A stretch of DNA of 64,000 nt. Source: an uncultured Gammaproteobacteria bacterium. Lineage in GTDB: Bacteria > Patescibacteriota > Microgenomatia > JALYQM01. Position 1 is the stretch's first letter. Each line of letters starts with the position of its first letter. The position numbers and the translations under genes were made by a program. The notes beneath the pieces were generated by a model. That model did not search any database, was not told the DNA's origin, and saw only the letters and a program-made list of their open reading frames with translations. The stretch is taken from assembly GCA_964403585.1 (NCBI GenBank), contig CAYOFQ010000002.1, positions 5,667 to 69,666 on the forward strand, given 5' to 3'. This document shows positions 1-55,455 of this stretch, piece after piece.

Positions 1-2155
1 CAATACATTGTTTATATAATTCCGCACGCTCCAACTCAGGAATATATCTCCACTCTCTGTATTCAACACCCTCAAAATACTTATCAACTTCGTTATATCG
101 CTGCATCATTTTTTCAATAAGAAGCTCAATCGGCTGCATAGGTTGCTGATGTACTTCAGATGTGTATTCAGAAATTGCCTTCTTCAAAGCCAAGGCAACT
201 CCAATATAATCAACTACTATGCCAGCTTCTTTATCTTTATATCTTCTATTAACTCGGGTAATTGCCTGCATCAAGGTATAACCTTTAATCGGCTTATCTA
301 TGTAAATTGTATGCAAATGAGGAACATCAAATCCCGTTAACCACATGTCACAGACAATAACTATTTTGAGTTTATCATCAGGATTTTTAAATCTCTTTTC
401 CAATTCTTTGTTACTCAATTCGTCTTGAATTTTTCCTTTATAATCGCTATTACTAGAAATAACAATTGCCATCTCAGGAGCTAAAGGTAAATCCTTCATA
501 ATATTATAAAGATCAACGGCTATCTTTCGAGTCATCGTTACAACCATTGCCTTACCTTCAAGTTTTCTATGTACAAAATGGTATATAATATCCTTTGCAA
601 CTCGTCTCAACCTATCATCCGCACCCACTAAACGCTCTAATTCGCTAAATTTCTTTTTTAATGTTTCCTTCACTTCTTCGGGATGTTCCGAAAAATAATC
701 ATCAAAATCTTCATTGATAAATTCATTCGCGAAATGAAGTGGAATTAACCGGCTATCATAAAAAATTGGAACCGTAGTCTGGTCACGCTCTGAACGATCA
801 ATAGTATATCTGCTAACAACCTTCCCAAACACGAGCTGAGTATTTCTATCGCTAAAAGCTATCGGAGTACCTGTTATACCTAAGAAAGAGGCATTCGGAG
901 CAGCAGTACGGATATTACCTGCGTAATCAGCATATTGAGAACGATGAGCTTCATCTGCTATTACAATTAGATTAGCTCGATCCGTAATCTTATGGTCAAA
1001 ATCAAACTTCTGGATAGTCGTAAAAAGTATTTCGGAACCAGGATAGGACAATTTCTCTTTTAAATCCTCAACGGTAACAGCAATTTTCGAACCTATAAAA
1101 CCTGAACGTAAAAAAGTCTTATACAATTGCTGATCTAAATCATTTCGATCAGTCAAAAATAACAGCATGGGACCAGAAAGTTCATCAAGTTGTCGCACCT
1201 TATTGGTATAAAAAACCATTGACAAGGATTTTCCACTACCTTGAGTATGCCAATAAACACCAATCTTTTTGTTACCTTTCACCGAATCAAGAGTTTGCTT
1301 AATCGTCCTATTAACTCCAAAGTACTGATGATACATGCACATTTTTTTTGTGTATTTTGTAGCATCTTTTTCTGCATCAGCTTCGAATACAATGAAGTAA
1401 TGAATAATATCAAGCAAATGATCTTTATTAAATATACCCTTAGTCAATACCTCCAGCTGATATTTATCTTCATTATTCTCTTCTTCACTTTCGATCCCGT
1501 CCCAAGGCACAAAGAAATCCCATGAGGAAGAAACCGTTCCATGTTTCGCCTTAAAAGAGTCACTAGCTACTAAAACTTGGTTAAAATAGAAGATTTTAGG
1601 AATATCCTGCTTATACTTCTCATGCAGTTGAGTAAAGGCATCAACAATTGTAGCATTAGGATCTGTAGGATTTTTCAATTCATAAATAGCGATAGGTAGA
1701 CCATTAATAAACACAACAACATCTGGCCGTCTTGTTTTCTCAACACCTTGCACAGAAAATTGATTTACAACTAAGAACTCATTATTAAACAAGTTTTTAA
1801 AATCAATCAATTTAACATATTCATTTTTAGTATCTCCAGCTTTATTCCTAAAATGAACTTCGATTCCTTTAATTATCCACTCGTAGGCTTCTTTATTTCC
1901 AAGCTCAATATCTACGTGATGAAATCTCATAAGCAGTTGCACAACTTCGTAAATTTTTTCTTCTGGAATTGACGGATTAATCCGTATAAGCGACCGAGTC
2001 AATCGTGATTTTAGAATTACATCACGATAATCCTCCCGCTCAGGTGCAACCCCTCCAGGAGCAATATCAGGCCCATATGCATACTCATACCCAAGCTGCT
2101 TAAACCAACCTAATAATGGCTGTTCAGACAATGTATCTTCATTCAACTTACTCAT
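1..2155 (-). CDS. hsdR: Type I restriction enzyme R subunit HsdR (partial; C-terminus lies beyond window start)
   Basis: Minus-strand frame is open from ATG at 2155 to the window edge. There is no stop, so it is absent from the ORF track. My own translation gives N-terminus MSKLNEDTLSEQPLLGWFKQLGYEY (HsdR N-terminal domain), Walker A HTQGSGKSLSMVFY near 1200-1260 and a DEAH box IVIADEAHRS near 930-960. The ATG sits 2 nt after the hsdS stop. Confidence 0.85.
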   Translation of the reverse strand, partial: MSKLNEDTLSEQPLLGWFKQLGYEYAYGPDIAPGGVAPEREDYRDVILKSRLTRSLIRINPSIPEEKIYEVVQLLMRFHHVDIELGNKEAYEWIIKGIEVHFRNKAGDTKNEYVKLIDFKNLFNNEFLVVNQFSVQGVEKTRRPDVVVFINGLPIAIYELKNPTDPNATIVDAFTQLHEKYKQDIPKIFYFNQVLVASDSFKAKHGTVSSSWDFFVPWDGIESEEENNEDKYQLEVLTKGIFNKDHLLDIIHYFIVFEADAEKDATKYTKKMCMYHQYFGVNRTIKQTLDSVKGNKKIGVYWHTQGSGKSLSMVFYTNKVRQLDELSGPMLLFLTDRNDLDQQLYKTFLRSGFIGSKIAVTVEDLKEKLSYPGSEILFTTIQKFDFDHKITDRANLIVIADEAHRSQYADYAGNIRTAAPNASFLGITGTPIAFSDRNTQLVFGKVVSRYTIDRSERDQTTVPIFYDSRLIPLHFANEFINEDFDDYFSEHPEEVKETLKKKFSELERLVGADDRLRRVAKDIIYHFVHRKLEGKAMVVTMTRKIAVDLYNIMKDLPLAPEMAIVISSNSDYKGKIQDELSNKELEKRFKNPDDKLKIVIVCDMWLTGFDVPHLHTIYIDKPIKGYTLMQAITRVNRRYKDKEAGIVVDYIGVALALKKAISEYTSEVHQQPMQPIELLIEKMMQRYNEVDKYFEGVEYREWRYIPELERAELYKQCI

Positions 2156-2156
2156 A

Positions 2157-3326
2157 CTAAACATCTAGTTCCCCTCTTAACAACTTAGGCAGCAAGATGT
2201 CTTTCAATGAAATTAATTCATTATTTTCAACTTCTAACAGTTGAATCTTATGTTCTATACCTCCTGCAATTATTTCAAACTTTGAGATTAACTCTTCTGG
2301 AGGTAATATAACCTTTATATTTTCTAATTCACTTTTAGTAACAGCAGCAAAGATAGAACCAGATCCAAAACTATCTTCTTTTTTAAATACATTTCTTAGT
2401 TGGTAAAACAGAAAACTCTGGCTACCATTTTTATTTCGAACAGATGCTAGGCCTCGACCTAAGGACAACTCTCTATCAGCAATGTTCAGTCTTCCAACAG
2501 GGGCACGCACACTCAATAAAATATCTCCTTTTGCAGCTTTTCTCGGATTATTTGTACAGAAAATTTTATGAGTAGGATAACGCCGTCCAAAATAAGTAAC
2601 TCCCTGATGAAAAGGAAGACCCTTACCTTCTATGTTATAGTCTTCAGATGGTGGAGATTGACCCATTATAATATCTGCTACTTCAGCAAGAGTAGTTAAC
2701 CTCCACGTAGACTCAGACAAGACCTTATTACCTTGAATCATAAACCATTCTTTATAAACTAATTGGGCAACAAGTTCCAGCTTTTCTACAATTTTATTAT
2801 TTAGTACGATTTTTTCATCTAGTCTTGAAATTATCGAAGATATTTTAGACTGTATTCTCAAATTTTCAGGATACTTAATCAATATTTGCCTCAACTCAGC
2901 TTGCCTTATTCCTTCTGCAGCAGTTCCGCTCAATCTCTTAAGTAATTCATGTCTCCCCTCAGCTCCCTGAAGGTAATAGTATAAGTACTTAGGATCCAAT
3001 TTAGTTTTATCAGTCCTTAGTCCAAATAGCCTTTGGCTTAAAACAAGATCTTTTTTTTCAGCTAAATAATATATCTCACCTAAAGGCGCTTCTGATGTTA
3101 ACAAAATATCCCCTGCTTCAAGCTTTTCAGGCATCCACTTCTCATATAAATCCGAACTAACATACCTTATATCATCATGATTGACTATTCTACCTGTCTT
3201 AATATTTTTAGCAGATATCGCTGGAATGCCTTTACTCGACCAATCACCTCCTAATTTTTTAGGAGTTAAACCTCTATGATCAATTATCAATTCCATTAGA
3301 TTATCAAGTCTATCTTGTTTCCACAT
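2157..3326 (-). CDS. hsdS: Type I restriction-modification specificity subunit HsdS
   Basis: 389 aa with two target-recognition-domain halves. C-terminal conserved helix ISLKDILLPKLLRGELDV is typical of HsdS. It is positioned between hsdM and hsdR on the same strand. Confidence 0.85.
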   Translation of the reverse strand: MWKQDRLDNLMELIIDHRGLTPKKLGGDWSSKGIPAISAKNIKTGRIVNHDDIRYVSSDLYEKWMPEKLEAGDILLTSEAPLGEIYYLAEKKDLVLSQRLFGLRTDKTKLDPKYLYYYLQGAEGRHELLKRLSGTAAEGIRQAELRQILIKYPENLRIQSKISSIISRLDEKIVLNNKIVEKLELVAQLVYKEWFMIQGNKVLSESTWRLTTLAEVADIIMGQSPPSEDYNIEGKGLPFHQGVTYFGRRYPTHKIFCTNNPRKAAKGDILLSVRAPVGRLNIADRELSLGRGLASVRNKNGSQSFLFYQLRNVFKKEDSFGSGSIFAAVTKSELENIKVILPPEELISKFEIIAGGIEHKIQLLEVENNELISLKDILLPKLLRGELDV

Positions 3327-3401
3327 ATACTAAACCCTTATTAAATTTGACTTATATCCACATTTTGCATATAATTAACATATAACGATGACTGGATAAG
3401 C

Positions 3402-3914
3402 CTAAGGTTTCGACCGACCGCTGATGCCAGTCGTTTTTTTGACATATTTTAAGCTCATTTTGAGCTTATCCAACGTTACTATATATTGAGCATACTTTCT
3501 CAATAAACTGGAATAATGCCTATTAGGCGTAATTACCTTCAAAAGCTTATTCTTACCAACTAAATGCTCAACTAAACAGTGAAAATCTCCATCATTAGAT
3601 ACAATTATCGCCTTTTCATAGTTTTCAAGCTCAATCATAGTATGTAAAACAAGCTCAGCATCAACATTCCCCTTCACAACTCCAGTTTTCAAAGTTAAGG
3701 TAGGCTTCAAAATGACTATATACCCCATCTCTTGTAAATGTGTATAAAGCTTTTCATTATCAGCTTTAAATCCGATAAAAACAAATGCTTTTTCGATCTT
3801 ATATTTATTTTTTAGATACTGACGAAACTTTCGCCAATCCAATTCCCAACCTTCAGATCGAACTCCTAAATTGAGATTTTGGCTATCTATAAATGCATAA
3901 TTCTCTTTACTCAT
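3402..3914 (-). CDS. NYN/LabA-like (PIN-fold) predicted nuclease inserted in the R-M operon
   Basis: 170 aa. Motifs AFIDSQNL (N-terminal Asp) and DAELVLHTM...IIVSNDGDFHCLVEHL match the NYN-domain acidic core. Its start overlaps the hsdM stop (3911-3914). Confidence 0.65.
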   Translation of the reverse strand: MSKENYAFIDSQNLNLGVRSEGWELDWRKFRQYLKNKYKIEKAFVFIGFKADNEKLYTHLQEMGYIVILKPTLTLKTGVVKGNVDAELVLHTMIELENYEKAIIVSNDGDFHCLVEHLVGKNKLLKVITPNRHYSSLLRKYAQYIVTLDKLKMSLKYVKKTTGISGRSKP

Positions 3915-5704
3915 AACTCAAATCCTAAAGTTTTCAAATTCTTTCGTATCTCTTCTTCTAGTTGTCTCGATTTAGCAAAGTCAGCAGATAAACTCTTCGT
4001 CAACTCCGACATTTTTTCTTCATATGAAATACCGTCATCTTCTTCCTCCGCAATCTCAACATATCTCCCTGGAGTCAACACATAACCATTTTCAGCAATC
4101 TCAGAAAGAGTTACTGATTTACAGAACCCAGCTACGTTCTCATAAGTACCCACTTCACCTCTCCAAGCTCTCACAGTATCAGCAATCTTCTTAATTTGCT
4201 CATCATTAAATATCACTTGCTTCCTCGAAATTTGCTCGAATAGATCCTTGGCATCAATAAACAACGTTTCTCCAGCTCTATTTCGAAACCTTCCAGAAAC
4301 TTTATTCTTAGTCATAAACCACAAAGAAACAGGGAGTGAAACATTATAAAATAGTTTAGGAGGGCAAGCGATAATAATATCAATAAGGTCATCATCGATC
4401 ATCTTCTTACGGATTTCCCCTTCTTTACCACCTACAGCTAATGCCCCGTTAGCCATAACAAAACCAGCCATACCATTGGGAGTTAAATGATGCAAAAAAT
4501 GTTGAATCCACATAAAGTTAGCATTACCGGATGGAGGCGTTCCATATTGAATTCTCGGATCTTTTTCATCTAGTCGATCAGGGTTCCACTCAGCATTAAA
4601 AGGAGGGTTACAAATTTCGAGATCTACCTTTAAGTCGGAAAATTTGTCATCATAATAAGTATTTCCAAGTTCAATCTTTCCATAAATGCCTCTAATCGCT
4701 AAGTTCATTTTACATAACTTAAGAGTAGTTTGATTACTTTCTTGACCATAAATCGCAATCTTTGTAGGGTCTTTATGATGTTCTCGTAAAAATTTACTCG
4801 ACTGAACAAACATACCACCCGATCCACACGCAAAATCCGCAACTCTACTATTTTCAAAAGGTTCAAGCACTTCGACCAAAACCTTAACTATTGAGCGAGC
4901 AGTAAAAAATTCACCTCCACGCTTACCTTCTTCTGAAGCAAACTGACCTAAGAAATATTCGTAAACCCTACCCAATAAATCTTTTTCTTTTTCAATGTCG
5001 TGATCAAAGTTAATTCTAGAAAATATATTTACCAATTCTCCGAGGATGTGACTGTCAAGGCCCACACGAACGTAACTTTTGGGAAGTACCCCAGTAAGCT
5101 GTTCAGGATTATCTTTTTCTATAGCATCCATAGCTTCATCAATGTATTTCGCGATATCACTTGAAGTAGCCTTTGAACGCAAGTATTCCCATCGAGCAAT
5201 TTCTGGTATAAAGAAAATTCCTTTACTTTTATACAAGTCTTTTTCCTCTAGCATTTTCTCTCTTATTTGAGGATCCGGAACATACTCAGGTCTACTAGAA
5301 TCAGCCATAAATTCGACTAATTCATCCCGCCTTTGATAATAAGTGTCGGTAATGTATTTAAGGAATATAAGGCCCAAAACAATATGCTTATAATCGGAGG
5401 CATCAATTGAGCCACGCAGCTTATCTGCAGCGGACCAAAGATCATTCTCAAAATTTATATCTTTGTCCTTATTGATCTCTTGAGTAAGTCTTTTTGCCAT
5501 TTTGGCTGTTTCTAACTGAGCAACACTCACTCTAGATTGAAGTTCACTTGGCAAAGTATCCACTCGAATAAGGTATTTCTTACCTACCTCTTTGATTAGC
5601 ACCTCTCCAGCCTGTATTTTACCTTGTAACTGTTTTTGTATAGCTTGTCGCGACACACCAAGTATCCGTGCAAGGTCATTAATGGTGATATATTTTTCTT
5701 CCAT
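3911..5704 (-). CDS. hsdM: Type I R-M N6-adenine DNA methyltransferase HsdM with extra N-terminal HTH domain
   Basis: 597 aa. HsdM_N-like region NDLWSAADKLRGSIDASDYKHIVLGLIFLKYI, motif I FACGSGGMF and motif IV NPPF (EICNPPFNAEW). The first ~85 aa, ITINDLARILGVSRQAIQKQLQ, form a MerR/excisionase-type helix-turn-helix that canonical HsdM lacks. Confidence 0.9.
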   Translation of the reverse strand: MEEKYITINDLARILGVSRQAIQKQLQGKIQAGEVLIKEVGKKYLIRVDTLPSELQSRVSVAQLETAKMAKRLTQEINKDKDINFENDLWSAADKLRGSIDASDYKHIVLGLIFLKYITDTYYQRRDELVEFMADSSRPEYVPDPQIREKMLEEKDLYKSKGIFFIPEIARWEYLRSKATSSDIAKYIDEAMDAIEKDNPEQLTGVLPKSYVRVGLDSHILGELVNIFSRINFDHDIEKEKDLLGRVYEYFLGQFASEEGKRGGEFFTARSIVKVLVEVLEPFENSRVADFACGSGGMFVQSSKFLREHHKDPTKIAIYGQESNQTTLKLCKMNLAIRGIYGKIELGNTYYDDKFSDLKVDLEICNPPFNAEWNPDRLDEKDPRIQYGTPPSGNANFMWIQHFLHHLTPNGMAGFVMANGALAVGGKEGEIRKKMIDDDLIDIIIACPPKLFYNVSLPVSLWFMTKNKVSGRFRNRAGETLFIDAKDLFEQISRKQVIFNDEQIKKIADTVRAWRGEVGTYENVAGFCKSVTLSEIAENGYVLTPGRYVEIAEEEDDGISYEEKMSELTKSLSADFAKSRQLEEEIRKNLKTLGFEL

Positions 5705-5744
5705 GACAATATCGTAACATATTAAAATAGAAAGTCAAGTTGCA

Positions 5745-5768
5745 ATATGACAACAAAAGTTGTCATAT
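5745..5768. promoter_or_regulatory. Perfect palindrome ATATGACAAC-aaaa-GTTGTCATAT immediately upstream of the hsdM promoter (candidate operator)
   Basis: 10-bp inverted arms ~40 bp upstream of the hsdM ATG. Minus-strand -35/-10-like TTGACT...TAATAT/TACGAT lie between the palindrome and the ATG. It is a plausible binding site for the HsdM N-terminal HTH. Confidence 0.4.
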
Positions 5769-5776
5769 GAATATCA

Positions 5777-6469
5777 CTATTCGTCCACTCTCACCTCGTT
5801 CACCACATCATAATATGCATGCAAATACGAATTCTCCAACACCTCGCACTTCACCAACCGCAACGGTCGCACCTTCAACAAATCCACCTGCGTATGAAGC
5901 GACTCTCCATCCACCAACGTCGACGTATCCTTACCACCCACCAACACCGCCGCAATCACCACCGAAACATGATCAATCAGTCCTCGCCGCACCCATTCCG
6001 CATTCAACGTTCCTCCCGACTGAATCGTAATCCGATCCACCCTATACTCACGCTTAAGTTTCTCCATTAACCCAGCCAAATCCACTTCACCGTCATAAAA
6101 TAGAATCTCAATATTCGAATATTCCTGCTTCACCTTAAAAGCCGGATGATTTTTATTCGTCGTCACCAAATACAACGTCTTCACCCACTGCGCCAAATAC
6201 GCCACACCCTTTTCATTTAAATGAGGCTTATTATCCAGGATAATAAAACTACAATCAATTTTCTTCGGCGGAGTCGTTCGCTCATTCACCCCAATCTTCG
6301 CCATCACCCGCCCTGTATTTAACGAAAACAAATCCGTCTGCTTCTCCAAGTCATAGTACTGCTGTAACCCTTCCTTAACCCCCACAATCCGCTTAAAATC
6401 CTTATCTACATCCAACTCGTCTACATCCCCGGTGGAAATCTTTCCATCCATGTGATACACAATAATCAT
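5777..6469 (-). CDS. Dihydrofolate reductase-like / RibD C-terminal domain family protein
   Basis: 230 aa. C-terminal ITIQSGGTLNAEWVRRGLIDHVSVVIAAVLVGG resembles the RibD_C NADPH-binding core. Confidence 0.55.
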   Translation of the reverse strand: MIIVYHMDGKISTGDVDELDVDKDFKRIVGVKEGLQQYYDLEKQTDLFSLNTGRVMAKIGVNERTTPPKKIDCSFIILDNKPHLNEKGVAYLAQWVKTLYLVTTNKNHPAFKVKQEYSNIEILFYDGEVDLAGLMEKLKREYRVDRITIQSGGTLNAEWVRRGLIDHVSVVIAAVLVGGKDTSTLVDGESLHTQVDLLKVRPLRLVKCEVLENSYLHAYYDVVNEVRVDE

Positions 6470-6493
6470 TACTACACGTAAGAAAGGTCATAT

Positions 6494-6997
6494 ATGGAAG
6501 AAACATCCCCTATCGGTGAAATAAAAGGTACCCCAAAAGACGAACGAGGCGAACTACAGACCAATGGAGTATGGAAATTAACCGAAACGTCATCATTCGT
6601 AGAACCGGCAACCCCGGATAATCCGGATCATCGAACCCACAATGTAACAAAAACAACCTTCACCGTCGAAGGCCCAAATGATGAAGTATATAAAGTAACC
6701 AACACCAACGATCGTATCGATGTAGAAGGACCGGGGTACAACAGAACCGACGAAGTTATTACCAATACCGGTATCACTCGCAATAGCGAAGACTGGTTAC
6801 CATTCCAGATTGCCAACCAGCTCATTGATCGTGGTGACGCATTTAATCGAAGCAATCGGAATCAACTGGTAAGAACATTAGATACAATTGGCTCAAACTA
6901 CCAACAAGCAGTCGCAAAAGCAACTGAGAGCGGTGACCGCCTTGCTGCTATTCAAACCGCTGTTGATCAAGCTAAGGATTTTACCGACCAGCTATAA
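6494..6997 (+). CDS. Hypothetical protein
   Basis: 167-aa ORF, no recognised domain, followed by an intrinsic terminator. Confidence 0.5.
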   Translation: MEETSPIGEIKGTPKDERGELQTNGVWKLTETSSFVEPATPDNPDHRTHNVTKTTFTVEGPNDEVYKVTNTNDRIDVEGPGYNRTDEVITNTGITRNSEDWLPFQIANQLIDRGDAFNRSNRNQLVRTLDTIGSNYQQAVAKATESGDRLAAIQTAVDQAKDFTDQL

Positions 6998-10115: not shown

Positions 10116-11567
10116 ATGAACGAATTAGTTCGGGAAATTGGATATGCACTCCACAGCAGGATAGCGGTGGAAACCCGCCGCGCCCTGGCGCCTAATCAAA
10201 CTCCGGGGCCTCGGAAACTTAATCCGCTACTCGGATGTTTACCGGAAGTCAGCACAGGACTTCTTGAATATATAGATACCGTCGCGCATCAGTTTCCTGA
10301 AATAGCGTTCTATCATGCCGGCGCTGCTATCTGTCAGGTTACCGATCCTGGGTTGGTGCGGCAAGTGTTGGCAGTGCAGCACGAAAAAACCCAGGCCATA
10401 GTTTTCCCGCGCACGGCCATGCGTTCCACCTTAGGCGAAGGAGTATTATTTAGCCAGGGCACCAAATGGCGCAACTCCCGCGAAGCAATGCAACCACAAT
10501 TTCATCACGGGAAACTGGAAAATTTCGCCGATATTGTCCACTCGGTATTGGATGAAACAGTCGACCAACTCAAATCATACCAAGAAACCGGCGCTACCTT
10601 TGACCTTAACAACGCCATGTCCGAAATGACTTTAAAAATCGTTCTGCGATCACTCTTTTGTCAGGACCTACCGCTGCAGGATTACCGTTCCATCATCGAC
10701 TTCACTATTAGATACAACGAGCTTTTTGTAGATACCCTCACTAAATCTCCTCTCTCACTTGTCAATCTGTTACTGGACAACAAATGGGACAAAAACGTCC
10801 GCAAGCTTCACGATATCGTCGAACAGGCAGATATCATTTTCGACCGGCTTATCGATCACCACCTCGAATATCCGCCCGGAACCTTTGACGACCTCTTATC
10901 ACTATTTATGAATATTCAATTTGAAGGACAACCAAACACACGAGAACAAGTCAAAAACGAAATCCGCACCTTCATACTCGCCGGGCACGACACCTCTGCG
11001 CGAGGTTTAACCTGGCTCTGGTACAACCTTTCTCAAAAACCGGAATGTATCGCCAAACTAACAGGTGAATTACAAGCCACCGGTAAAAACGCGCGCGAAT
11101 TAGGTCCGCATGATCTCAGAGAACTTCCGTACCACCGTGCCACCATTGAAGAAAGCCTGCGACTACACCCGCCTTCTTGGGTAAATTTACGCATGGCCAA
11201 AGAAAACCTGGCCCTAAAAAGTTCGAGCGGTAAGGATTATTTCGTCCCGCGGGGTACATACATTATTGTCAGTCCGTATGGCACCCACCGCAGCCCTGCG
11301 TATTGGGAAAATGCCGAACAATTCAATCCGGAAAGATTTCTTCTGCCGAATAGAAAAACAATCCACCCCGGCGCCTTCTTTCCGTTTGGCGGCGGTCCTC
11401 GTCATTGCATTGGCCAGGGCTTTGCTATGACGGAAATGCAGTTAGCAGTAGCACGACTTAATTCCGAATTTGCTATTCAAATAATTACCGGAGAAGTTGA
11501 ACCAATGGCCTCACTTGTGCTTCGAGCTAAAAACCCCATTATGGCTAAAGTAACACAAAAAGAATAA
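10116..11567 (+). CDS. Cytochrome P450 monooxygenase
   Basis: 483 aa. Heme-binding loop FPFGGGPRHCIGQGFA, I-helix AGHDTSA, ExxR motif ESLRLHPP and an N-terminal PGPRKLNPLLG. Confidence 0.9.
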   Translation: MNELVREIGYALHSRIAVETRRALAPNQTPGPRKLNPLLGCLPEVSTGLLEYIDTVAHQFPEIAFYHAGAAICQVTDPGLVRQVLAVQHEKTQAIVFPRTAMRSTLGEGVLFSQGTKWRNSREAMQPQFHHGKLENFADIVHSVLDETVDQLKSYQETGATFDLNNAMSEMTLKIVLRSLFCQDLPLQDYRSIIDFTIRYNELFVDTLTKSPLSLVNLLLDNKWDKNVRKLHDIVEQADIIFDRLIDHHLEYPPGTFDDLLSLFMNIQFEGQPNTREQVKNEIRTFILAGHDTSARGLTWLWYNLSQKPECIAKLTGELQATGKNARELGPHDLRELPYHRATIEESLRLHPPSWVNLRMAKENLALKSSSGKDYFVPRGTYIIVSPYGTHRSPAYWENAEQFNPERFLLPNRKTIHPGAFFPFGGGPRHCIGQGFAMTEMQLAVARLNSEFAIQIITGEVEPMASLVLRAKNPIMAKVTQKE

Positions 11568-18404: not shown

Positions 18405-18681
18405 CTCCCCGACTAGGATTCGAACCTAGAACCTTCTCGTTACATGAACCCCACAAGTTTCCTAGTGGCATGGACTATCTCATCACCATACTTAAAAAGC
18501 ACAGGTGTCAGGCGTATAGTCTCTGAACCTTCAATACGCAAGAAGCGTAAAGCTTGGCTGCGGATTACCATAATCTTTCGATCGTAGGCTTCCCGACAGT
18601 TAACCCAATTTTCACTTCAGGATTTCTCCAGAAGGCTGCATCAATCTACAGCGAGCCGCTCTACCGTTGAGCTATCAGGGA
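18405..18681 (-). tRNA. tRNA-Asn(GUU) interrupted by a group I intron (exons 18648-18681 and 18405-18442)
   Basis: 5' half UCCCUGA-UA-GCUCAACGGUAGAGC-G-GCUCG-CUGU. 3' half UAACGAGA-AGGUU-CUAGGUUCGAAUCCUAG-UCGGGGA-G. The acceptor stems pair (UCCCUGA/UCGGGGA). Spliced anticodon loop is CUGUUAA, class I variable loop, discriminator G73, no encoded CCA. Confidence 0.65.
18443..18647 (-). ncRNA. Group I intron (IC3-like, Azoarcus/cyanobacterial tRNA-intron type), 205 nt, no ORF
   Basis: 5' exon ends in U. IGS GCAG pairs with the exon CUGU. P2 is CUUC-U-GGA-GAAA-UCC-U-GAAG. The core shows extended identity to the Azoarcus pre-tRNA-Ile intron as recalled from memory (UAUGGUAAUCCGCAGCCAAGCUU...UUGAAGGUUCAGAGACUAUACGCC...CACCU). 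The intron ends with omega-G (CAUG|UAACGAG). Confidence 0.65.
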
Positions 18682-18684
18682 ATA

Positions 18685-19401
18685 TTAACTTTTACCGTGC
18701 TTTAAGCACGATGCATCCTGAATTCTATCACCAAAAACAGCAGAAATCCACCCCATAATTTGACGCTGTATATCTGAGCAACTGAACCTAATAGAAAACA
18801 CTCCATAAGAGTGTATATTTTTTCTAATTTTCTGTGAATCAATCTTATTTTTTACTATATAAGTTTTATGGAATTTAGCCTTAGAAATACCCGTTAGTTG
18901 AGACCAAAATTCCCTTGCAGCTTCTATATCTAAACCTTCATGAATCCAAAGTGCACCTCTAAATCTATCTTCAGGGACCTTCGCAAATTGCCGTAACCAG
19001 CCCATCATAAACTCGATTATCCGAGGATCAGAATTTGCGATACCTCCCTTCCCATCGGCTTTATCACCTTCACCCAAATAAATAGCGATACCTGCCAACA
19101 ACCTGTCCCTTTCAGAAATCGCACCTAGTTCATTTTTTGCATGTAAAAATATTTGCTGAGTTTTATTAATTCTGTAGGAACGTTTATTTTCAGCTGCAGC
19201 AAGAGAACCCTTTTTTTGACCGTTAATTTTTGTAGTAATAAGCCGGTTTCTCTGTTCATCAGTTAATACTATATCCCTACACCAACGACTTAATGTGTCT
19301 TTAGAAACTTTAACCTGTAATAAAATCTCATTATAAGAAAGACCTTTACTTCTTAATTTCTGAGCAATAATTCGTTCTTCCAATTTCCCTGAATAACCCA
19401 T
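18685..19401 (-). CDS. HTH-domain protein, possible LAGLIDADG-like endonuclease fold (uncertain)
   Basis: 238 aa. N-terminal HTH (RSKGLSYNEILLQVKVSKDTLSRWCRDI). Segment ERDRLLAGIAIYLGEGDKADGKG loosely resembles a LAGLIDADG motif. It ends 4 nt before the intron-containing tRNA. Confidence 0.3.
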   Translation of the reverse strand: MGYSGKLEERIIAQKLRSKGLSYNEILLQVKVSKDTLSRWCRDIVLTDEQRNRLITTKINGQKKGSLAAAENKRSYRINKTQQIFLHAKNELGAISERDRLLAGIAIYLGEGDKADGKGGIANSDPRIIEFMMGWLRQFAKVPEDRFRGALWIHEGLDIEAAREFWSQLTGISKAKFHKTYIVKNKIDSQKIRKNIHSYGVFSIRFSCSDIQRQIMGWISAVFGDRIQDASCLKHGKS

Positions 19402-54998: not shown

Positions 54999-55021
54999 AA
55001 AAACATCAAAAGAAAATGATG
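54999..55021 (-). terminator. Intrinsic terminator immediately 3' of ssrA (CAUCA-uuuucuuu-UGAUG-UUUUU)
   Basis: 5-bp stem plus a U5 run on the minus strand. A second overlapping hairpin gives it bidirectional character. Confidence 0.5.
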
Positions 55022-55455
55022 TGGAGATGCCGATCTATGAAATCGGGTCTGGAATCTGTAATTAAAAACATCTACATAGCATAGTCGGTACTTATATCTC
55101 GTACCACAACGATCCTACCGACAGGAGAAGTGATACAAAGGTCAAAGTCTTAAAGGATTACAGCGACCACCCCGAATCCTCGCATACAATCTTTGTTTAC
55201 GCCCTACTCCGCTCGATTGTAAAATCAGAATAGAACGTCCATTGTTTAGCTAAAGAAAAGTTTAGCCAAATGCAGGATAGCTAACGCCTGCTACAGCGTT
55301 ACCCAAGCCGAAGTTTGGGAACTTTGCAGCGATTTTGTCAGCTATTGATGTAGAAGAATCTGCATCTATATTTTAGTCCCGTTTTTACGACTCTTGAGAC
55401 CATCGTCGGCTATGCAGTTTTTAAAGAGCACATCCCATCGAAACAACACATCCCC
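55022..55455 (-). ncRNA. ssrA: tmRNA (SsrA)
   Basis: 5' end GGGGAUGUGUUGUUUCGAUGGGAUG matches the canonical GGGGcUGauucuggaUUCGAcGGGAu. 3' end ...CCGAU-UUCAUAG-AUCGG-CAUCUCC-A forms a T-arm and an acceptor strand pairing with the 5' GGGGAUG. A candidate tag ORF begins after the UAG at ...AAUAGCUGAC... and ends at the UAA inside hairpin GCUAAAcuuuucUUUAGC. It is divergent from smpB. Confidence 0.6.

Follow-up and report, generated by a model that had tools for sequence, protein, structure and literature searches.

A NYN-domain gene lies within a type I restriction operon

The stretch of DNA analysed here, referred to as the window, comprises 64 kb of contig CAYOFQ010000002.1 (positions 5,667 to 69,666). 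At its left end it carries a type I restriction-modification operon into which a gene for a NYN-domain (LabA-like, PIN-fold) protein is embedded. This gene, together with a small RNA predicted to be encoded against its 3' end, is our subject, and we consider whether the two form a toxin/antisense-RNA cassette. The genes follow on the minus strand in the order hsdM (3911..5704), NYN (3402..3914), hsdS (2157..3326) and hsdR (2..2155), as proposed in a first-pass annotation made from the sequence alone and as borne out by the open reading frames (ORFs) and their Pfam matches. HsdM, the methyltransferase subunit, has 597 residues and an N-terminal helix-turn-helix (HTH) domain (residues 1-50). Its Pfam scores were 347.9 bits for N6_Mtase, 90 bits for HsdM_N and 24.8 bits for HTH_17, the motifs FACGSGG and NPPF are present in its translation, and homologues of 64-70% identity occur in bacteria of the candidate phyla radiation. 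The specificity subunit, HsdS, has 389 residues and two target-recognition domains, with Pfam Methylase_S matched in two stretches (PADLOC Specificity_I, 5e-73). The gene for the restriction/translocase subunit, HsdR, runs past the start of the window and is incomplete; the 718 residues seen include HSDR_N, SWI2_SNF2, ResIII and T1R_D3-like domains of Pfam and match TIGR00348 of NCBIfam (576 bits) and PADLOC REase_I (7e-195). NCBIfam and PADLOC agree on the hsd genes.

The stop codon of hsdM and the start codon of NYN overlap (...GAGTTATGAGT..., ATGA), as had also been annotated, and translation of NYN is predicted to be coupled to that of hsdM through this overlap. The genes hsdS and hsdR abut, with no gene between them. 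A scan from hsdM to hsdR returned a lone terminator-like site, which falls within hsdS, and none between genes; nor was a sense-strand promoter-like site found in the spacer between NYN and hsdS. No second copy of NYN or of an hsd gene was found in the window.

The NYN gene product, of 170 residues, matched PF01936 with 58.6 bits (gathering cut-off 24.2) over positions 5-144 of the 145 in the profile, so that the fold assigned at first pass holds. An AlphaFold model (mean predicted local distance difference test score 86.7) was closest, among solved structures compared with Foldseek, to 2qip (VPA0982; 1e-7) and then to the MARF1 NYN domains 6fdl and 5yaa (about 5e-4). Four acidic residues, D10, D85, D108 and D110, are the same in all of 29 homologues, and the protein is a predicted Mg2+-dependent NYN/PIN-fold endonuclease. 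Pfam, PADLOC and NCBIfam all returned the NYN domain alone, with no ABC-ATPase, HEPN or other sensor domain. There was no full-length match to PADLOC HEC-09 (19 bits, 1.7e-4, residues 96-154 only), and the match to the PADLOC profile PDLC01154 'NYN' (1.4e-10) was confined to the C-terminal half (151-306 of 310) of what is a two-domain profile. The family is very large and tightly conserved: more than 8000 clusters were matched, and the top 120 were 64-73% identical and mostly from Patescibacteria. Between the window and the sister operon on contig L104, the NYN codons show 53 synonymous and 6 non-synonymous differences, which indicates that NYN is under purifying selection while embedded. NYN genes have no promoter signal upstream, their best -35/-10 score being 8.3 as against 8.1 in shuffles. 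Some genomes (L067, L080, L070 and L087) carry two NYN genes, in tandem or a few kb apart; the second copy belongs to a distant clade without the conserved RNA described below and ends in an ordinary terminator-like hairpin.

A predicted small RNA is encoded convergently to NYN

The 3' flanks of NYN genes share a conserved non-coding element although the genes downstream differ. The element, present at 76 of 82 NYN 3' ends and on the strand opposite NYN, is predicted to encode a small RNA. As placed by a covariance model and by alignment, the window copy specifies an RNA of about 59 nt convergent to NYN (3382..3440, plus strand). Its promoter (3347..3375, plus strand) consists of a -35 box TTGACT (3347-3352), a 17-nt spacer and a -10 box TATAAT (3370-3375); it was the best promoter-like site in positions 1-6600, with 11 of 12 positions matched, and it is located in the NYN-hsdS spacer, directed towards NYN and against the operon. 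The predicted RNA begins with the single strand AUAACGAUGA, followed by helix P1, in which 3390-3395 pair with 3427-3432, by an inner hairpin, GGU-UUCG-ACC, and by a tail of seven U (U7, 3434-3440). At the NYN/hsdS junction its whole length is complementary to the polycistronic hsd message, and it covers the last 12 codons of NYN and the stop codon (3402-3440). The covariance model had a single match in the window (3380-3448, plus strand, 77.2 bits, E 7e-14), and the folding energy of the RNA was -19 kcal/mol (z -3.6). From these signals, the small RNA is predicted to have its own promoter and intrinsic terminator. The RNA, whose promoter opposes the operon, may also affect expression of hsdS and hsdR.

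The same anatomy recurred across loci. A TTGACA-N17-TATAAT promoter matching at 10 or more of 12 positions was found at 51 of 73 loci (70%), compared with 2.5% of shuffles, and the distance from the end of the -10 box to the conserved ATCACGATG was 6 nt in 45 of the 73. In the body of the RNA, the 5' stretch AUCACGAUGA is close to invariant; after it come a helix of 6 bp, an inner helix of two pairs, a hairpin of the form GG(U)UUCG(A)CC and 5-8 U. In the 73-sequence alignment, covariation was detected at all six pairs of P1 (one pair, for example, is UA in 35, AU in 18, CG in 11 and GC in 7 sequences), and the observed covariation score was reached by none of 500 shuffles. Run over 640 kb of loci, the covariance model gave matches that adjoin NYN on the opposite strand, except for orphan copies that are described further on; a second, tandem copy was seen solely in L031 and L003. 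The overlap with the RNA is visible in the NYN coding sequence as well. Across 44 NYN genes the frequency of the top codon was 0.91 in the last 12 columns and 0.55 at conserved positions of the body, and the Gly, Arg and Ser of the C-terminal 'GRSKP' tail are each specified by a single codon in all sequences with the majority residue. That this tail is invariant but disordered is explained by the overlap of the RNA element with the last NYN codons. Other members of the NYN family end before the hairpin.

The RNA had no Rfam match at gathering thresholds, and permissive scans gave chance matches only (E 4-10). A hammerhead or other ribozyme, suggested by the CGAAAC core, was rejected, with no CUGAUGA box on either strand and no Rfam match. 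So was a small peptide, since the AUG in AUCACGAUGA opens frames of inconsistent length between variants.

It could also be that the element is not an antisense RNA at all, but a structure in the 3' untranslated region of the sense strand, or an attC-like recombination site that acts as single-stranded DNA and marks the end of a cassette. In keeping with this, in type-B loci the sense strand can form the hairpin just as well, the element marks where homology between loci ends, and covariation alone cannot separate RNA from folded single-stranded DNA. However, on the opposite strand the spacing to near-consensus -35 and -10 boxes is fixed, only the small-RNA strand has the U-run after the hairpin, and G.U cells in the alignment number 12 on that strand and 3 on the other. 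Moreover, the phage copies are co-oriented with a tRNA array, and no integrase or array of such sites was seen. A sense-strand or single-stranded DNA element therefore seems to us distinctly unlikely, and we continue with the element as a convergent RNA.

NYN occupies a cargo slot in a mobile island

The GC content is 0.33-0.37 across positions 1-5770 and 0.42-0.49 in the flank, which places the right-hand end of a low-GC island at about 5771; homology between the window and L104 ends just upstream of the operon promoter. HsdM of L104 is 94% identical to that of the window, and the flanks of the two operons are unrelated. The low GC content together with the unrelated L104 flanks indicates that the hsd segment is a mobile island. 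The first recognition domain of HsdS is also unrelated between the two, whereas hsdM and NYN are conserved. The DnaG protein of the host is closest to proteins of Patescibacteria/Microgenomates (36-40% identity).

We compared the window with nine loci that have an HsdM homologue of 66-94% identity, and the hsdM-hsdS interval was occupied in all ten operons. Their frame is the same and their cargo differs: NYN in the window, L104 and L105; DUF3800 and DUF4145 in L106; an RNase H-like RVT_3 protein in L107; DUF3800 in L108; DUF2321 and an ORF of unknown type in L109; DUF4145 in L110 and in L111; and RhuM, KilA-N and DUF3800 in L112. NYN thus sits in a true accessory-gene (cargo) slot. A second insert lies between hsdS and hsdR in L106-L112, where both genes are visible. 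It codes for uncharacterised proteins of 145-274 residues, for Trypsin_2 or for DUF4145, and the position is empty in the window.

Downstream of the DUF3800 cargo in sister operons we noted a convergent near-consensus promoter, a hairpin and a U-run (L106 8559-8660; L107 about 4724-4860; L109 about 5755-5900; L112 about 10641-10785). The sequences are unlike the NYN-linked RNA, and Rfam returned no RNA motif for operons that bear DUF3800. Possibly, an effector accompanied by a convergent small RNA is a design general to these cassettes.

That type I systems hold embedded accessory genes, PIN-like and NYN genes included, is already known. PIN-like nucleases coupled to type I systems have been published (PMC5499597), and a 'guilt by embedding' survey counts 17,432 genes that lie within BREX, DISARM and type I systems; the study also covers HEC-09, an embedded NYN protein that gave no protection in tests (Payne 2024, bioRxiv 10.1101/2024.01.29.577857). 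The cargo comparison would add that the hsdM-hsdS gap is a reusable docking site for self-contained modules, and that 'embedded' need not imply 'functionally coupled' to the restriction enzyme.

Most NYN genes stand apart from restriction genes

We assembled 84 distinct NYN loci, 56 of which were informative, having at least 1.5 kb of flank on one side. Restriction-type neighbours were present at about 3 of the 56: in L058 NYN is followed by a DUF4145-like gene and then HsdS, in L073 a BcgI-like fused restriction enzyme overlaps the NYN start, and in L074 an enzyme of the BcgI-like fused type lies 3.3 kb from NYN. About 95% of the close homologues stand alone. The 117 immediate neighbours of NYN span 133 Pfam families, the commonest, YchF, occurring five times, and PADLOC matches near NYN loci are few. 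Embedded NYN proteins are 67-83% identical to their nearest stand-alone relative and 57-65% identical to other embedded ones, and an embedded-specific NYN subfamily was ruled out by a neighbor-joining tree and by the pairwise identities. Because each embedded NYN is nearer to a stand-alone NYN than to any embedded one, at least four separate captures into restriction loci must have occurred (window/L104, L105, L073 and L058). The same relationship speaks against NYN and the restriction complex having co-evolved as physical partners.

The first-pass annotation had named recurrent association with hsdMSR as a check and had suggested a restriction-coupled abortive-infection or toxin module of a family not described in that role. 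Embedding does recur, in the four or more independent lineages just named, but linkage to restriction genes is confined to about 3 of the 56 informative loci. The idea of a toxin gains from the conserved convergent small-RNA gene, whereas its coupling to restriction is not supported, given the preponderance of stand-alone homologues. As for novelty, no paper describing the family in such a role was found in the literature searched.

The arrangement had also been likened to that of PrrC. In the prr locus PrrC is located between hsdS and hsdR, whereas the first-pass annotation had it in the same position as NYN, between hsdM and hsdS. Part of the likeness stands: as with PrrC and RloC, a ribonuclease-type gene lies inside an hsd operon, is co-expressed with it and is a candidate second line of defence. 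Modelled on PrrC, NYN would be held inactive on HsdMSR and freed as an abortive-infection RNase once a phage anti-restriction protein disables the enzyme. The embedding in a type I operon, the translational coupling to it, the recurrence of embedding in several lineages, the presence in the same slot of the known restriction-linked genes RhuM and DUF4145, and the precedent of PrrC itself are all consistent with such a guard. However, PrrC combines an ABC-ATPase with HEPN in about 400 residues and is silenced by protein-protein contact, whereas NYN is a bare 170-residue PIN-fold domain with no sensor. Nearly all PrrC genes lie inside restriction operons (Payne 2024, bioRxiv 10.1101/2024.01.29.577857), unlike the NYN family, in which linkage is rare. 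The embedded NYN copies are polyphyletic, closer to stand-alone ones and devoid of embedded-specific features; the same cassette follows a BcgI-like fused enzyme in L073 and occurs in a phage; and it carries its own antisense RNA as a regulator. We regard a guard of the PrrC kind as very unlikely, and a toxin/antisense-RNA cassette that acts independently of the restriction complex agrees better with these observations.

The phage copy is on the opposite strand between the genes for the large terminase (terL) and the portal protein. NYN is missing from this gap in the other 75 related phage contigs that have both genes. The terL-portal gap is an accessory-gene hotspot in which NYN is found once. 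In phages with a lambda-type portal (L113-L192), the gap ranges from 10 to 4199 nt and the inserts differ between close relatives (84-87% TerL identity). A search of plasmid records returned only NYN genes of about 29% identity, and a search of phage records returned none. In L031 (1-2814, plus strand) an intein (Pfam Intein_splicing, 64 bits, and Hint) interrupts a large, repeat-rich protein, and the position in it that a homing endonuclease usually takes is filled by a NYN domain (71 bits) with 30% identity to that of the window.

These contexts bring to mind a selfish cassette of the homing type, in which NYN would cut DNA at empty targets and copy itself into operons and phages, the RNA merely limiting expression. 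Beside the intein, the polymorphism for presence and absence between terminase and portal would fit, as would insertion between genes with overlapping stop and start codons and the several DNA-related neighbours (DprA and DnaE). Yet the upstream flanks of the insertions share no recognisable target sequence, the characterised NYN domains are RNases (MARF1), and a conserved RNA with its own promoter is not known for homing genes. Homing is improbable in our view, and mobility of the NYN-RNA pair is more readily seen as that of a toxin/antisense-RNA cassette.

The RNA persists where NYN is lost

Copies of the RNA were found in places from which NYN is absent. In L106, in which the restriction slot holds DUF3800 and no NYN, an orphan RNA copy scored 82 bits. 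In L003 (Falkowbacteria) NYN is a pseudogene with in-frame stops that has lost its catalytic middle, and two RNA copies are kept. The exact RNA core was present on nine viral contigs (IMG/VR, L193-L201), none of which has a NYN ORF, and on four of the nine the covariance model matched at full length with 52-71 bits. A partial copy in L201 (8267-8307, minus strand) lies inside an array of 24 tRNAs and a transfer-messenger RNA (tmRNA), in the same orientation as the tRNAs. Judged by their sequence, the viral orphan RNAs could be phage-borne decoys. The converse, NYN without the element, is rare: L080 and L072 have displaced or degenerate copies, the element in L101 is broken, and three further cases belong to a distant paralogue clade.

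This asymmetry bears on the possibility that NYN is a harmless passenger, that is, an ordinary Patescibacteria RNA-processing enzyme that came to lie in a recombination-prone gap, its 3' element being regulatory or stabilising and serving no conflict function. The very high sequence conservation of NYN would be expected of such an enzyme, and so would frequent neighbours such as YchF, DprA, ArgRS and DnaE and the lack of a protein antitoxin. HEC-09 showed no defence, and bacterial NYN genes have been linked to genes for tRNA and rRNA maturation (PMC5499597). On the other hand, NYN has no conserved synteny, as the diversity of its neighbours makes clear, and it is found both in restriction cargo slots and between terL and portal in a phage. 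Here it rides a low-GC mobile island, and a promoterless gene is paired with a strong antisense promoter. A NYN pseudogene with its RNA kept, and orphan RNAs in phages, fit conflict modules better. We consider a passenger unlikely, and the toxin/antisense-RNA cassette to be the reading that the retention pattern favours.

A candidate toxin/antisense-RNA cassette

We propose that NYN and the small RNA together make up a type I-like toxin/antisense-RNA cassette that is autonomous and mobile and has lodged in a restriction operon's cargo slot, and we put the probability of this reading at roughly one half. The anatomy of the cassette, its conservation and covariation, its mobility and the asymmetry in retention are established at the level of sequence comparison. 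The roles assigned to its parts are argued by analogy: the RNA would repress NYN, NYN would be toxic, and the module would stabilise the island or abort infection.

The cassette would have two parts, a promoterless ORF for a NYN/PIN-fold endonuclease and a strongly promoted, convergent, structured RNA of about 60 nt over the 3' end of the NYN message. It would have landed in the variable hsdM-hsdS slot of a mobile type I island in a Patescibacteria-like host. While transcription proceeds, abundant antisense RNA would pair with the NYN message, or bind the NYN protein, and keep the level of the nuclease low. Were transcription to stop, through phage takeover or loss of the element, the RNA would decay first, and NYN would then cleave RNA and arrest growth. 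Stabilisation of the island, abortion of infection or both could be the outcome. The cassette would act alone, and the restriction complex would have no part in keeping it latent. The analogy is with those type I toxin-antitoxin pairs, such as txpA/RatA and bsrG/SR4, in which the two genes have a 3' overlap. A protein antitoxin was considered and rejected: the window has no room for one, since the RNA promoter takes up the 75-nt spacer, and no small gene was found to be conserved next to NYN.

Several observations weigh against this proposal. Classical type I toxins are small membrane peptides, and the candidate is a 170-residue enzyme. The overlap involves the 3' end and is distant from the ribosome-binding site, so that translational repression is not an obvious consequence. 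The folding energy is alike on both strands in type-B loci. The 5' single strand and the loops of the RNA are conserved in sequence even outside the coding overlap; this exceeds the needs of simple cis-antisense pairing and hints at protein binding or a target in trans. L101 has an intact NYN beside a broken RNA element. NYN is about 65-73% identical across lineages in which DnaG is 36-40% identical, which a housekeeping role could fit too. Finally, the sole NYN protein tested as an embedded defence candidate, HEC-09, which is of a different subfamily, protected against no phage tried.

The likeness to type I toxin-antitoxin systems lies in a protein gene paired with a cis-encoded antisense RNA that overlaps its message and has its own promoter and terminator, here predicted in silico, as well as in mobile, prophage or island contexts and orphan antitoxin copies. 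Nuclease toxins are represented among type I systems by SymE/SymR and RalR/RalA. However, the usual toxin is a hydrophobic peptide of less than 60 residues, whereas NYN is a promoterless gene for a soluble enzyme fold of 170 residues, and the loops and 5' end of its RNA are conserved beyond what antisense pairing needs. The host differs as well: a 2025 article gives Proteobacteria, Firmicutes and Tenericutes as the only groups with known type I systems (PMC12390103), whereas the present host is a candidate-phyla-radiation bacterium.

Type III ToxIN is similar in joining an endoribonuclease, predicted in our case, to a structured RNA conserved in sequence, and phage-borne RNA mimics are a known escape route from ToxIN, to which the orphan viral copies may be compared. 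In contrast, ToxI consists of tandem repeats that lie upstream on the same strand and are processed by the toxin, whereas the RNA described here is a single, convergent, downstream unit with its own promoter. Like the window protein, HEC-09 is encoded by an accessory gene within a defence operon of several genes and has a NYN domain similar to that of MARF1. It differs in that the systems around it are Hma, in an additional N-terminal domain and in having no reported RNA partner, and it matches the window protein weakly. The LabA/COG1432 group (2qip VPA0982; cyanobacterial LabA) has the same Pfam family, fold and conserved acidic active-site residues; the window NYN is only about 26% identical to 2qip, and no associated antisense RNA has been described for the group, the function of which is given as unknown or regulatory (PMC5499597).

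The pairing of NYN with this small RNA was not found in Rfam or in the literature searched. In its broadest form the proposal would be that the pair founds a new family of toxin/RNA-antitoxin or abortive-infection systems, spread widely among candidate-phyla-radiation bacteria and the phages that infect them. A structured RNA of 60 nt would silence a nuclease of the PIN fold, phages would respond with orphan copies of the RNA, some of them in tRNA arrays, and sister cargo such as DUF3800 would share the design. So wide a claim is doubtful, and we put it forward tentatively. Bacterial LabA-like NYN proteins are abundant and their function is listed as unknown; the RNA pairing would offer them a concrete, testable role. 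If the proposal is right, RNA-controlled toxin systems would gain an enzyme toxin and a new RNA family, in a bacterial radiation from which none has been described and whose defence biology is hardly explored.

Control of the operon and other features of the window

A scan for promoter-like sites placed the operon promoter at 5711..5771 on the minus strand, with the -35 box TTGACT at 5733-5738 and the -10 box TACGAT at 5711-5716, and by these scans a single promoter is predicted to drive all four genes. Palindromic sequences that resemble operators lie over it, at about 5739-5768 on the minus strand, and read GTTGTCATATTGCAAC and ATATGACAAC-TTTT-GTTGTCATAT. A GTTGTCA-N3-5-TGACAAC palindrome abuts the -35 TTGAC upstream of seven of eight related HTH-hsdM genes (window, L104 and L106-L110, but not L105). 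The operator is probably bound by the HTH domain fused to HsdM, and the conserved palindrome suggests that the methylase subunit itself may autoregulate the restriction operon.

Elsewhere in the window, a group I intron lies at 18451-18657 on the minus strand (Rfam RF00028, 79.7 bits) and adjoins an ORF at 18685-19401; ARAGORN found no tRNA hosting it. A tmRNA gene is present at 55019-55455 on the minus strand (RF00023, 91.3 bits), with 437 nt as against the 374 positions of the model. A cytochrome P450 gene was found at 10116-11567 on the plus strand (Pfam p450, 251.6 bits) in a genome whose DnaG groups with Patescibacteria; a cytochrome P450 is unusual in such reduced genomes.

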